Assembly (NCBI GenBank): GCA_963668315.1
Contig: OY764216.1
Span: forward strand, 2,976,001-3,040,000
From: Spirochaetia bacterium
Lineage (GTDB): Bacteria; Spirochaetota; Spirochaetia; DSM-2461
Length of the DNA stretch: 64,000 bases
Reading direction: 5' to 3'
This document shows positions 11,484 to 16,251 of the stretch, piece after piece. Each line of letters starts with the position of its first letter. Position 1 is the first letter of the stretch. The notes beneath the pieces were generated by a model. That model was given only the letters and a program-made list of their open reading frames with translations, was not told the DNA's origin and did no database searches. The position numbers and the translations under genes were made by a program.

Positions 11484-12785
11484 ATGATCAAGCATACCCT
11501 TCAATACGGCAGAGATATACAGGAAGGAATCATCCCCGATCAGTGGAGGGGGGATTCCATAGAATGTTCCGGCGGCAAGGCCGGGACGACCCTCGTGGAG
11601 ATGGTCAGGACGGCCATGGCCGAACCCGTTGAATCTCCCCTTCTGCGTGAGATCGTCCATGGCGGAGAGAAGGTATGTATCGTTTTTTCCGACATCACCC
11701 GCTCGTGGCAGCGGACCGACCTTTATCTCCCCGTCATCATCGGGGAACTGGAACAGGGGGGCGTTCTGCCCGGGGACATTACCCTGCTCTGCGCCATGGG
11801 TACGCACAGACCCCACAGCGAAGAGGAGAAGATGCGGCTTCTCGGGCCGCTTTATGGAAAATACACCCTGGTGGAGCACAACTGCGATGACCGGGAGAAT
11901 ATGATTAAAGTGGGAGAAACCACCCGCGGGACGGAGGTGGAACTGAACCGTCTGGCCGTTGAAGCGGACAGGCTGGTTATCACCGGGGGAATCGTCTTTC
12001 ACCTGATGGCCGGCTATGCGGGAGGGCGGAAATCCCTTCTTCCCGGAATCAGCAGCCGCAAAACCATTTCCCAGAATCATTCCCTGAGCCTCCATCCGGA
12101 AAAAGGAAAAGGCTCCCATCCGCTTATCGGCTGTGATAAGCTTACGAACAATCCCCTCCATGAGGATCTGATGGAAGCACTGGAGATGGTGAAACCCGAT
12201 TTTCTCGTCAACATCGTTCCCGGAGTCGACGGACCGGGTGCCGCCGTCGCCGGTCATTACGACAAGGCCCATAAAGAGGGCTGCCGTCTTCTTCGGGAAT
12301 TCTTCCGCATACCCATTCCCGGCACCAGGGAGCTGGTCATCGCCTCGGCGGGCGGATTTCCCGGGGACATCAACTTTTACCAGTCCGTCAAATCTCTGAT
12401 AAATGTCTGTCAGGCGCTGACTCCGGGGGGCACGCTGATTCTCCTGACCCAGTCTCCCGAAGGGCTGGGCAATCCTCTCATGGAAGAGCTCATCACAAAG
12501 TTCAATTCCATTGAGGAACGGGAAGCCTTTCTGAGGGACAACTACACCATAGGGCGCTTCATTGCCTATTACGGATGCGAGCTGGCGTCCCGTTACCGCA
12601 TCATCCTGGTGACTGATATGAAGGAATCTTCCCTCGTCAAGGCCGATATTGAGACATGTGAGACTTTCCAGGACGCCCTGGATCTTGTCCAGAAAGAGAC
12701 GGGGGGAAAGGAACTTTCCTACTGGCTCATACCCGACGGGTCCCATACTTTTCCGGCAATTGACAAAAATCCCGGTTCGGTCTAG
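11484..12785 (+). CDS. larA: Nickel-pincer-dependent lactate racemase family protein (LarA homolog)
   Basis: SDITR, GTHR, FHLMAGYAGGRKSLLPG, NH, FYQSVK motifs. Confidence 0.88.
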   Translation: MIKHTLQYGRDIQEGIIPDQWRGDSIECSGGKAGTTLVEMVRTAMAEPVESPLLREIVHGGEKVCIVFSDITRSWQRTDLYLPVIIGELEQGGVLPGDITLLCAMGTHRPHSEEEKMRLLGPLYGKYTLVEHNCDDRENMIKVGETTRGTEVELNRLAVEADRLVITGGIVFHLMAGYAGGRKSLLPGISSRKTISQNHSLSLHPEKGKGSHPLIGCDKLTNNPLHEDLMEALEMVKPDFLVNIVPGVDGPGAAVAGHYDKAHKEGCRLLREFFRIPIPGTRELVIASAGGFPGDINFYQSVKSLINVCQALTPGGTLILLTQSPEGLGNPLMEELITKFNSIEEREAFLRDNYTIGRFIAYYGCELASRYRIILVTDMKESSLVKADIETCETFQDALDLVQKETGGKELSYWLIPDGSHTFPAIDKNPGSV

Positions 12786-12788
12786 ATT
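12760..12788 (+). promoter_or_regulatory. Sigma70 promoter of leader-tyrS transcript
   Basis: TTGACA (12760-12765)-N17-TAGATT (12783-12788). Confidence 0.75.
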
Positions 12789-12799
12789 TAAGACCTATT

Positions 12800-12871
12800 A
12801 TGAAGATTATCAACGTCAACAGCTATTACTATTATTATTCCTCAACCAACCAGGGGCTGTCGGCACGGTAA
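12800..12871 (+). CDS. Tyrosine-rich leader peptide MKIINVNSYYYYYSSTNQGLSAR
   Basis: ATG..TAA ORF of 23 codons with TAT TAC TAT TAT TAT at 12824-12838, between promoter and attenuator of tyrS. Confidence 0.85.
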   Translation: MKIINVNSYYYYYSSTNQGLSAR

Positions 12872-12918
12872 TCACCGTAAAAAAGAAACAACAGCCCCGT
12901 TTGACGGGGCTTTTTTTT
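12853..12918 (+). terminator. Attenuator: antiterminator and intrinsic terminator upstream of tyrS
   Basis: Terminator AGCCCCGT-TTG-ACGGGGCT running into a T8 tract (12893-12918); GGGGCTGT (12853-12860) is complementary to ACAGCCCC (12891-12898). Confidence 0.85.
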
Positions 12919-12999
12919 GGGATTCCGGAAAACGGGGCCAAAGCGGAGCCGGCAGGCCGTAACGCGGCTTTTCCCTTCGCCAACACAAGGAGTAGAAAC

Positions 13000-14235
13000 A
13001 TGAGAAATGCCTTAGACATCCTCAAAGAACGGGGATTCTTCAAACAGTGTACCGACGAAGAGGGGCTTCGAAAGAAGTTTGACGAAGGTCAGGTCACCTT
13101 CTATGCCGGCTTTGATCCTACCGGACCCTCCCTCCATATCGGCCATCTCGTACCGGTCTACGCCATGGCCCATCTCCAGAAAGCCGGCCATAAGCCCATC
13201 TGCCTCATGGGCGGGGGAACGGCCCGTATCGGCGACCCCTCGGGCAAAACGGAAATGAGAAAGATGATCAGCTATGAGGAAATCGGCCGGAATATCGAAG
13301 GTCAGAAGCCTCAGCTGGCCAAGCTCATAGATTTCGAAGGCTCCGATGCGATTCTGGCCAACAACGCCGACTGGCTGGCCGACCTGAACTACATCGATTT
13401 TCTCCGGGATATCGGCCGCCACTTCTCCGTCAACCGAATGCTCACCTTCGAAGCCTATAAACAGCGCCTGGAAAGGGGACTCTCCTTTATCGAGTTCAAC
13501 TACCAGCTTCTCCAGTCCTACGACTTTCTGGAGCTTAACAGACGGTTCGGCTGTACCCTCCAGATCGGCGGTGACGATCAATGGGGCAACATCGTAGCCG
13601 GTATGGAGCTTATCCGCCGGATGGAAGACGGCGTGGAAAGCTTCGGACTGACCTTTCCCCTTATCGCCCGTTCCGACGGAAAGAAGATGGGCAAGACCGA
13701 GAAGGGCGCCGTTTTCCTGAATCCCGAAATGACGTCGGTTTACGACTTCTACCAGTACTGGCGGAACGTTCCCGATGCAGATGTGGAGAAGTTCTTCCTT
13801 ACCTTTACCTTCCTTCCCGTGGAGGAGTGTAAGGAGCTGGGGGCGGCCAAGGATCAGGCGATCAACGAATCCAAGGAGAGACTGGCCTACGAAGTGACAA
13901 AGCTGCTCCACGGCGAAGAGGAAGCGGAAAAAGCCCGCGCCGCCGCCAAAGCCGCCTTCTCGGGAGGGGCCGGGGGCGATAAGGAGGGCATGCCCTCCTG
14001 CGAGATGTCCGCCGCCGATTTCGAGCAGGGCATCAATGTTCTGGACCTTTTCGCCTCTACCGAACTGTGCGCTTCCAAGAGCGAGGCAAGGCGCCTCGTC
14101 TCCCAGAACGGAGCGGCCGTCAACGGCGAAAAGTTCTCCGATGTGGACGGGCTGATCAATGCGTCCCATGTGCAGGAGGGAGAAATCATCCTGAAAGCCG
14201 GGAAAAAGCGCTTTTTCCGTATTATAGTAAAATAA
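13000..14235 (+). CDS. tyrS: Tyrosine--tRNA ligase
   Basis: GFDPT, HIGH, QIGGDDQWGN, KMGKT, C-terminal S4 domain; ATG 13000 after AAGGAG (the ORF track start at 12649 is too long). Confidence 0.97.
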   Translation: MRNALDILKERGFFKQCTDEEGLRKKFDEGQVTFYAGFDPTGPSLHIGHLVPVYAMAHLQKAGHKPICLMGGGTARIGDPSGKTEMRKMISYEEIGRNIEGQKPQLAKLIDFEGSDAILANNADWLADLNYIDFLRDIGRHFSVNRMLTFEAYKQRLERGLSFIEFNYQLLQSYDFLELNRRFGCTLQIGGDDQWGNIVAGMELIRRMEDGVESFGLTFPLIARSDGKKMGKTEKGAVFLNPEMTSVYDFYQYWRNVPDADVEKFFLTFTFLPVEECKELGAAKDQAINESKERLAYEVTKLLHGEEEAEKARAAAKAAFSGGAGGDKEGMPSCEMSAADFEQGINVLDLFASTELCASKSEARRLVSQNGAAVNGEKFSDVDGLINASHVQEGEIILKAGKKRFFRIIVK

Positions 14236-14286: not shown

Positions 14287-16251
14287 ATGGAGAAGTATGT
14301 TTCCATCAGGCCGTTAAGCAAGGAGCTGGAGAATCGTATTTCCAGGAATCCCCTCCTGAATATCGACACCTTCATTATCCCCTCTCCCTATATACAGGAT
14401 AAGGATCTGACCAAGGATTACGATCATAGTTTTGTCTGGATCGAGGAAGGGGAGATCATGGGCTATATCCTGGTCTATTCCCGTCTTAAATCCCGTACAT
14501 ACCATATCTATAAAGTTGTCACCAGCCCCTTCGGCAGGGGGCGCGGGGTGGGAACATTTCTGATCGAGCACCTGGTGAGGCATCTTCCCGAAGAGGCCTA
14601 TCTCTATCTCTACATCTGGCAGAGGCAGCCCGATACGGTGGAATTCTTCGAAAAAAAAGGATTTGTTCAGGGGGAACCCCTGGTCTACCGGAATCTCGTC
14701 TATATCCATCTTTCCGCCCGGAAAGACGACGTGCTTATCGATTCCCGCAAGGGGGAAGGGGAGAGCAGCCGCCCCGCCGAGGAGATCGGCCGGACCCGTC
14801 ACGACGCCCGCAAGACCCTGAGGCTTCTCTCGAGCATGGTGGATATGCTCTCCGTGGATAACGGGAGCCGCATCATCGAGGATATCAACAGGGAGACCAC
14901 CTCCCTCATCAATACGCTGAATTCCTACCGCCACAGCATGGACGTGGTGCATAAGGTCAATATCAAGGACCTGATCACCGAGAGGATCATCCCCTATATC
15001 GAAGCCTCCGAACTCAAGTGCGAATTCCAGCTGATCCTGAAGATCAAGAAGCCCGTCGTTCTCGGCTCCCACGTGTATATAGGAAGGGCCCTGATAAACC
15101 TCATAGCCAACTCTCTCGAAGCCATAGGGGAGGCGGAGAGGAAAGGGCGGATTGTCATAACCCTCGACAAGACGGACGGCAAAGTCCTTTTTATCCTCGA
15201 GGATAACGGCATCGGCATCGCCCCGGAGAAAATGAAGAAGGATCACGAGGGTATACCCGCTTTCGTAGGCCGGACAACCAAGGGGAAACACCGGGGCGAA
15301 GGTCTGGGCACTACCCAGATCTATACCACCTTCGGCCCGGATAATATCTCCGTGGAGAGCGAACAGGGGGTGGGCACCACCTGGAAGATAGAGCTGGACA
15401 AATTCTCCTATGAGCAGGATCGATGGTTTATTCAGATCGAGCGGCGCTATAACGAGTTTGAGATGCTGATGGACGATCTGGTCTTCTCAGGCGAGGAGGA
15501 GAGGCAGAAGGTCATCACCTACATCTGGCAGCTCCGGAAGATGGAAATATTCCTCTTCGACGTGATCTGCCAGTTTAGTAAATATAACAATATCCGCGAT
15601 ATCTACCGCACTTTTCTCTCCTACCGAATGGACAGTCTCGACAGGGAGGGATTCGTGAGAGCTTCCGCCGAATGGAAGAACGACTATCCCGTGCTCAGGG
15701 AATGGATCGTCACCATGGCCGATGAAGTGAAAAAGCGGAGGGACTACCTGAACCATGGGGTGGATGTCAGAAAATTCCGGGGTTCCCTCATCAAGAGCTG
15801 GGGACAGGCCCTGGGGAATGTCATCATCTTCACCCTGAACCCGTCGACGGGGAATTTCCTGGCCACCGACCGAAGGCTGGCGGAGCATCTGGATTTCGCC
15901 CCCCATCTGGGAGGGGATAAGGAGAAGCTTCTCCGCGGCGAGTTCGTGGGCGACATCAACCATCTTTCCCAGCCGCTGTTCCTCGGCGTCTGGGAAGTAC
16001 GGGACGAGGACGATCTGCTCTATAAGCTGCGTCTTATCAGGGAAGGGGCCCGGGTGCTGCTCGAGATGGGGCTCAACCCGGAGAAAAAGCTCGCCTTCTA
16101 TCAGACCACTTATGTCAGGCATTCCCGGGATATCAATGCGGATATGTCCACCACTCTGGGAGCCTTTGCCCGGATTCCCGACGGAGAGCTTCGCATCTAT
16201 GCCCGGGAAACCGAAGACGACCTGCAGGGATTTGTCATGATACAGGACTGA
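14287..16251 (+). CDS. Cytoplasmic GNAT acetyltransferase-histidine kinase fusion with unknown C-terminal domain
   Basis: GNAT motif A RGRGVGT and FFEKKGF; H-box RHDARK; N-box NLIANSLEA; DNGIG; TTK..GEGLG. Confidence 0.75.
   Translation: MEKYVSIRPLSKELENRISRNPLLNIDTFIIPSPYIQDKDLTKDYDHSFVWIEEGEIMGYILVYSRLKSRTYHIYKVVTSPFGRGRGVGTFLIEHLVRHLPEEAYLYLYIWQRQPDTVEFFEKKGFVQGEPLVYRNLVYIHLSARKDDVLIDSRKGEGESSRPAEEIGRTRHDARKTLRLLSSMVDMLSVDNGSRIIEDINRETTSLINTLNSYRHSMDVVHKVNIKDLITERIIPYIEASELKCEFQLILKIKKPVVLGSHVYIGRALINLIANSLEAIGEAERKGRIVITLDKTDGKVLFILEDNGIGIAPEKMKKDHEGIPAFVGRTTKGKHRGEGLGTTQIYTTFGPDNISVESEQGVGTTWKIELDKFSYEQDRWFIQIERRYNEFEMLMDDLVFSGEEERQKVITYIWQLRKMEIFLFDVICQFSKYNNIRDIYRTFLSYRMDSLDREGFVRASAEWKNDYPVLREWIVTMADEVKKRRDYLNHGVDVRKFRGSLIKSWGQALGNVIIFTLNPSTGNFLATDRRLAEHLDFAPHLGGDKEKLLRGEFVGDINHLSQPLFLGVWEVRDEDDLLYKLRLIREGARVLLEMGLNPEKKLAFYQTTYVRHSRDINADMSTTLGAFARIPDGELRIYARETEDDLQGFVMIQD

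Follow-up and report, generated by a model that had tools for sequence, protein, structure and literature searches.

How does a spirochaete set the level of its only recognizable tyrosyl-tRNA synthetase (TyrRS)? The question was raised by a stretch of 64,000 nucleotides (nt) from a Spirochaetia bacterium (GenBank assembly GCA_963668315.1, contig OY764216.1, positions 2,976,001 to 3,040,000), which we call the window and whose positions are used below. Before the gene tyrS, it contains a leader with a promoter, a small open reading frame (ORF) with five consecutive tyrosine (Tyr) codons, and an intrinsic terminator. This leader is a real, conserved element and a switch of the textbook type. Our reading, to which we give a probability of about 0.88, is that it would act as a ribosome-mediated transcription attenuator that measures how much Tyr-tRNA(Tyr) is available and sets tyrS expression accordingly. 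A preliminary description, made from the sequence alone, had proposed such a device; its coordinates for the promoter, 23-codon ORF, Tyr run, complementary segments, hairpin, terminator, and tyrS all proved right base for base.

Anatomy of the tyrS leader

All the features described here lie on the plus strand. A sigma-70-type promoter is predicted at 12760..12788 (TTGACA-17-TAGATT, 10 of 12 consensus matches). Its hexamers are invariant in the four genomes of the genus, and the transcription start site is predicted at about 12795. The region 12300-13300 holds three promoter-like sites against 0.5 expected, and none was found between the terminator and tyrS. Since no such site follows the terminator and tyrS is single-copy –the sole TyrRS match in the source genome– its expression would need read-through.

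The leader ORF (12800..12871) has 23 codons, MKIINVNSYYYYYSSTNQGLSAR*, and its ATG stands 11 nt past the -10 box (9 nt in three relatives). It has no Shine-Dalgarno (SD) sequence, as first described: the anti-SD duplex reaches -0.4 kcal/mol. The proposed sensor is the run of five Tyr codons at 12824..12838 (TAT TAC TAT TAT TAT), nucleotide-identical in all four genomes. Four of these five codons are TAT; genome-wide, TAT and TAC are about even (12,984 vs. 12,331).

Segment 1 (12798..12824) is the predicted 5' strand of a protector helix and would pair with 12855-12880 in untranslated RNA. Segment 2 (GGGGCTGT, 12853..12860), the 5' strand of the antiterminator, is the exact reverse complement of segment 3 (12891..12898), its 3' strand, which overlaps the 5' arm of the terminator. 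Between the last Tyr codon and segment 2 there are 14 nt here, and 14, 14, and 17 nt in the relatives. An inner hairpin around the leader stop codon (12865..12878) is nested in the antiterminator. The intrinsic terminator, recognized by its sequence pattern, spans 12893..12918, with an 8-bp stem and a 3-nt loop (12893-12911) followed by a U tract. It had been given eight T, and the T run does reach 12918, but the count of eight includes the last base of the stem. The ribosome-binding site (RBS) of tyrS (AAGGAG, 12987..12992) and tyrS itself (13000..14235) follow; the gene encodes a tyrosine--tRNA ligase of 411 aa (TIGR00234, 435 bits vs. a cut-off of 113.8).

Conservation among relatives

All 41 genomes searched had a TyrRS match, and upstream DNA was present for 40 of them. 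The promoter, the frame of five Tyr codons, the antiterminator pairing, and the terminator preceded tyrS in the four genomes of the genus (TyrRS identity of 77-96%) and in 0 of the 36 other relatives with upstream DNA. The alignment of relatives that the preliminary description had called for supported the attenuator geometry throughout the genus.

In the four-way alignment, the hexamers, Tyr run, segment 2, and terminator arms were invariant or nearly so; the promoter spacer, the 5' end of the leader, and the rest of the peptide drifted. Indels were in-frame, and the leader ATG and stop were kept through them. The inner hairpin presented compensatory changes (C-G to G-C in one genome, and a G-C, G-U, A-U series at another pair) around a loop that was invariant in the four genomes. 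A fifth related contig had 42 differences from the window over 901 bases. Among the differences listed in our table –some of the 42, not all– the promoter, the Tyr run, and 12851-12962 were spared; of the five listed in the ORF, three were synonymous, two of them preserving protector pairs as G-U.

The position of tyrS also differs among relatives. The 29 upstream regions displayed comprised 21 with another gene directly before tyrS, which we take to be glyS, five with a separate upstream region, and three with the leader. In the source genome, the putative glyS lies elsewhere than tyrS and is followed by a terminator. A quick tree of 39 rows nested the genus TyrRS among its family and split TyrRS into two types, the two points for which it was used; 19 loci removed by the motif filter (among them the Alistipes locus and the other type-1 Bacteroidota rows) and the fragment G003 were left out of it. 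Since the genus TyrRS nests among its family, the simplest reading would be that the genus acquired the leader as tyrS moved out of the glyS operon.

Alternative folds and proposed mechanism

We modelled the ribosome as RNA kept unpaired up to 10 nt beyond the A-site codon. In these constrained folds, the antiterminator formed, at -18.0 to -20.7 kcal/mol, when the ribosome stalled on the first or the last Tyr codon; at the leader stop, it did not form and the terminator arm stayed free. Both outcomes held in 4/4 genomes. The alternative structures foreseen at the outset were thus recovered throughout the genus. The naked full leader folded into a long protector helix plus the terminator, again in all four.

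The leader has three attenuator features that can be tested in sequence: an ORF with cognate codons, an intrinsic terminator, and an antiterminator exclusive of it. The switch would work as follows. RNA polymerase would start about 5 nt before the leader AUG, where a ribosome would initiate without an SD sequence. When charged tRNA(Tyr) is plentiful, the ribosome would reach the stop and mask segment 2, the terminator would fold, and transcription would end near 12918. When it is scarce, the ribosome would stall on the Tyr run and block segment 1, leaving segment 2 unpaired to join the 5' arm of the terminator and close over the inner hairpin. With the antiterminator formed, polymerase would continue into tyrS and more tyrosyl-tRNA synthetase would be made.

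The 3' arm of the terminator is repeated just downstream (window 12932-12938), and also in G002 and G003, within a hairpin. In folded read-through RNA, the repeat can pair with the 5' arm of the terminator.

Chance expectation

Runs of at least five Tyr codons are rare in the 5.62-Mb genome, with only two on both strands. Among its 471 strong terminators, three have a perfect 8-nt upstream complement, and five Tyr codons lie within 100 nt of just one, that of the tyrS leader. When the intergenic region was resampled 200,000 times under a Markov model, a run of five Tyr codons never arose.

Sister leaders in the same genome

Seven further SD-less units of promoter, ORF, and terminator were found in the genome, each with a codon run matching the gene downstream. 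A Phe leader precedes pheST, a Val leader valS, a Thr leader asd, an Ile/Leu leader leuA, and a Trp-Trp leader trpS. A Lys-rich leader with terminator (G000:C1:3906515-3907680) precedes a broken gene, presumably class II lysS (named from PF00152 and from recall), and an Ala-run leader with terminator (G000:C1:255819, minus strand; L304, also L307) precedes a pyridoxal-phosphate (PLP) aminotransferase. The lysS-like gene is shortened, and its frame is broken close to the 3' end. The Ala run suggests that the PLP aminotransferase is an alanine aminotransferase under an Ala attenuator. In folds of all seven, a stalled ribosome left the terminator arm paired, and one at the stop left it mostly free.

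Some of these leaders recurred in relatives. The Phe leader was present in 15 of 30 pheS loci from four families, always 8-12 nt past a -10 box; the terminator rule caught 7 of the 15, and the remainder had bulged hairpins and T runs recognized by eye. The Val leader was found in 4/30 loci, the Thr leader in the three loci with upstream DNA, the Trp leader in 2/2, and the Ala leader in two of four genomes. Upstream of valS in G001 (L256), the promoter runs at once into a terminator, and the Val ORF of three genus relatives is missing.

Among 19 synthetase-family genes read (a count that left out alaS and class I lysS), two had leaders (valS and lysS), one was T-box-like (thrS), and 16 had neither. 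The thrS leader (G000:C1:2656507-2656778; L305:208-479) scored 71 bits (E 4.7e-15) against the T-box model, below the gathering score of 93, and by inspection of the alignment it has a Thr codon at the specifier position.

Tyr leaders at other loci

A second TyrRS, 28-31% identical and also matching TIGR00234 (type 2), was present in 3 of the 41 genomes. All three –members of one family– carry before it a Tyr-run leader and terminator different from those described above, and G701, from another family, has a third design. Together with two metagenome contigs, this makes six loci with a Tyr leader before type-2 tyrS. Tyr leaders also precede DAHP synthase in four genomes of family f18, where the fold switch was clear in one, ambiguous in another, and not seen in two near-identical ones. 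These unrelated Tyr leaders, together with the protector helix and the seven sister leaders, go beyond what the preliminary description had noticed.

A pattern scan across genomes gave eight matches, two of them unrelated. In metagenomes, the strict pattern for the tyrS leader had no match, and a relaxed one had 27: two before tyrS, one before phenylalanine hydroxylase, and 24 that were not Tyr leaders. On metagenome contig L075, phenylalanine 4-monooxygenase is preceded by a three-Tyr leader that has both a terminator and an antiterminator. A loose class-wide pattern of four Tyr codons and a T run matched in 53 of 401 genomes; because a backwards control also matched many, such matches are not evidence by themselves. 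We read 48 of these loci and retained those with an ORF, a terminator, and an identified gene. In G438 (L203), a five-Tyr leader and terminator precede a sodium/solute symporter, which hints at a tyrosine transporter. Four further loci (L069, L079, L076, and L220) have terminators with ATT/ATC-rich stretches upstream, probably Ile/Val leaders in another frame; their genes look like citramalate/isopropylmalate synthase or branched-chain aminotransferase.

Outside the phylum, both genomes of an Alistipes-labelled genus (Bacteroidota) have a seven-Tyr leader before tyrS. No Tyr leader was found in the other members of that family (0/28) or in other Bacteroidota (0/29; 30 loci read of 60 matches), and none of the type-2 tyrS loci read across the phylum (30 of 159 matches) had a leader with terminator. 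We make no claim that the genus leader and the Alistipes-type leader are homologous, because the terminator motif they have in common had been built into the search pattern. The patchy distribution of Tyr leaders would fit repeated gains.

Neighbouring genes and leaderless starts

Upstream of the leader lies a gene of the LarA-family nickel-pincer racemases (11484..12785, plus strand; best match NF052525, below its cut-off), and a larA-like gene is the upstream neighbour in all four genus genomes. Its TAG stop codon is the TAG of the -10 hexamer, and the leader ATG follows 14 nt further on. The gene after tyrS (window 14287-16251) appears to fuse an N-terminal GNAT-like region with a histidine-kinase ATPase-like region (weak NCBIfam matches).

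The genome has 368 strong promoter matches, 194 of them with the ATG of a long ORF within 60 nt. That ATG falls 5-12 nt after the -10 box in 68 of the 194, most often at 6 nt (30 cases), and 13-20 nt after it in 17. Judged by this spacing, leaderless starts look common in this bacterium. Many housekeeping genes, presumably including metG, leuS, asnS, serS, and proS, lack an SD sequence and have their ATG 6-9 nt past a -10 box, and leaderless mRNAs seem common. For the Tyr leaders, with the ATG 9-11 nt past the -10 box, the predicted 5' extension is 3-5 nt.

Comparison with known systems

The literature searched, which mostly did not cover subscription papers, yielded neither a Tyr leader on tyrS nor an amino-acid attenuator in spirochaetes. 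Lopatovskaya 2010 reportedly lists neither tyrS nor spirochaetes. The papers cited below were available in part, and what we say of them holds for those parts. PMC2965389 lists tyrS as T-box in 25/32; in its supplement, the first 30 of 76 places gave 28 sequence rows, of which 25 were labelled T-box and three were unlabelled and had no Tyr run. The searched supplement file of PMC8632094 had no tyrS entry. For Actinobacteria, PMC1262725 reports no tyrosine element and places classical attenuators on trpS and leuS.

The closest likeness is to the pheST attenuator of Escherichia coli and to the leader-peptide attenuators of trp, pheA, his, thr, and leu, which also combine a cognate-codon ORF, protector, antiterminator, and terminator upstream of a synthetase or biosynthetic gene (PMC2659441, PMC11802643). 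Unlike them, the tyrS leader would sense Tyr and control tyrS, belongs to a spirochaete, and has no SD sequence. The Rfam models Thr_leader, Phe_leader, and Trp_leader scored 21.9, 16.8, and 16.2 bits against gathering scores of 55, 55, and 41, and no Rfam family was assigned at the leader. The Firmicute tyrS T-box (RF00230) shares with it the gene, the signal (uncharged tRNA-Tyr), and the output (terminator read-through), but the tyrS leader lacks a T-box motif or stem I, and sensing would be by the ribosome rather than by pairing of tRNA with the leader. We rejected the identities of T-box, Rfam leader family, and tRNA mimic (no matches at cut-off; no conserved anticodon-like loop).

Other leaders are similar in some respects. 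The uORFC-8-2 cysS leader of Rhodobacterales and the uORFC-13-1 aroF leader of Acholeplasma (PMC8632094), upstream of a synthetase and of DAHP synthase, are, like ours, lineage-specific, found by comparison, and predicted, and the His leaders of Bacillus hisS paralogues (PMC2965389), predicted only, sit on duplicated synthetase genes as Tyr leaders do. These leaders differ in using Cys, Phe, or His and in belonging to other phyla, and that of Acholeplasma has an RBS. The poly-Cys small ORFs of mycobacteria (bioRxiv 10.1101/834739) are leaderless, as ours would nearly be. They use a homopolymer codon run as sensor, as proposed here, and likewise occur at several loci per genome; they control access to a downstream RBS, whereas the tyrS leader has an intrinsic terminator and a predicted 5' extension of 3-5 nt.

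Tyr codons before an aromatic-pathway gene have precedents as well. The aroF gene is tabulated in PMC2659441 as 'attenuator sensing tyr-tRNA' from a 1980 E. coli paper, and PMC8632094 calls the Tyr-sensing aroF attenuator of E. coli a hypothesis. In Corynebacterium glutamicum, the aroR-aroF leader reads Phe-Tyr-Phe (PMC4046766, PMC11802643; also treated in PMC3890552). It differs from ours in having one Tyr codon, in reportedly responding to Phe and not Tyr, and in preceding a gene that is not a synthetase.

Weighing the alternatives

The attenuator reading is supported by the anatomy of the leader, its conservation, the computed folds, and the occurrence of Tyr runs with terminators before other Tyr genes, as well as by the sister leaders. 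The conserved frame, the synonymous changes, and the leaderless starts elsewhere in the genome would indirectly favour translation of the leader. Several observations weigh against an attenuator that senses Tyr-tRNA(Tyr). In naked nascent RNA, the antiterminator outcompetes the protector in 3/4 genomes. The spacing of the leader ATG falls in the tail of the leaderless distribution (6+2+3 of 194), and initiation there may therefore be weak. Of the covarying stems that the preliminary description had proposed as a check, the inner hairpin was borne out; the antiterminator helix keeps 8/8 pairs in 4/4 genomes without ever varying and so gains no support from covariation. For the whole structure, 23 of 500 shuffles scored as high, a modest signal from an alignment of four sequences only. 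The Tyr codons lack any synonymous change in the four genomes, although coding alone would not demand this. The type-2 tyrS leaders form weaker antiterminators (-8 to -15), and the terminator arm was clearly sequestered in three of the five leaders folded. Finally, the C. glutamicum aroF leader, despite its Tyr codon, is reported as unresponsive to Tyr (PMC11802643).

The alternative that survives best, improbable as we find it, is that a protein –TyrRS or another RNA-binding protein– throws the RNA switch, with the TAT-rich stretch or the inner hairpin as its binding site and the ORF incidental. The identity of the 15-nt Tyr run in all four genomes, the invariant hairpin loop, and the absence of an SD sequence would suit it. 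However, the in-frame ATG and stop are retained through indels, TAT and TAC are mixed freely in the other Tyr leaders, the sister leaders change their codon to suit the gene, and a conserved tRNA-like anticodon loop was not found on inspection of the alignment.

Slightly less probable is a true leader-peptide attenuator that depends mainly on ribosomes re-initiating after the larA-like gene, or that senses the general rate of translation over Tyr. The larA-like gene and the leader share a strand, in this genome the gene stops close to the leader ATG, and re-initiation over such distances has been proposed (PMC4833913). Between genomes, however, the upstream stop moves by 20-30 nt while the promoter-to-ATG spacing stays at 9-11 nt, and both hexamers are invariant. 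Five Tyr codons in the leader, where Tyr usage is 3.5%, also argue against this reading.

It is very improbable that the larA-like gene simply ends in a leaky terminator within an AT-rich spacer, with the Tyr run and the pairing there by chance. The terminator does stand about 110 nt past a same-strand gene, and the loose class-wide pattern and its backwards control match many genomes; the chance controls, the conservation, and the covariation speak against it, and it would leave the sole tyrS without a promoter. A degenerate T-box binding uncharged tRNA(Tyr) directly has next to no chance: tyrS is a classic T-box gene (25/32 in PMC2965389) and the genome has a T-box-like element at thrS, but that is its only T-box match, the leader gave none at the gathering score and none with E relaxed to 10, and about 120 nt are too short for stem I and an antiterminator.

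Significance

As far as our literature searches reach, the pairing of Tyr with tyrS and the occurrence in the spirochaete phylum are new; the SD-less start has a precedent in Actinobacteria. There, the ilvBNC leader of C. glutamicum is said, in the title of a reference alone, to be made without an RBS. The mechanism itself is textbook, and the surprise is moderate. If the attenuator reading is right, tyrS would have a Tyr-tRNA sensor based on the ribosome rather than on a T-box, and a compact natural tyrosine sensor of about 125 nt including its own promoter. The leader is also a test case for whether a ribosome that initiates without an SD sequence, a few bases from the transcript start, can load in time to influence RNA polymerase. 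That it was gained in the very genus in which tyrS and glyS have parted would give a datable origin of a regulator after a gene move.

We lean, with some reserve, towards a broader reading in which free-living Spirochaetia run a set of SD-less, leaderless or nearly leaderless attenuators and readily build new ones, with Tyr sensors arising separately on type-1 tyrS, on its type-2 copies, and on DAHP synthase. In one genome, the proposed set would cover Tyr, Phe, Val, Thr, Ile/Leu, Trp, Lys, and Ala, beside a T-box, and the type-1 tyrS sensor would have arisen after the gene left the glyS operon in one genus. If this is true, the record of attenuators would be extended to another phylum and to sensors of Tyr and Ala, and initiation at a promoter-proximal AUG would be the route by which such sensors are born.

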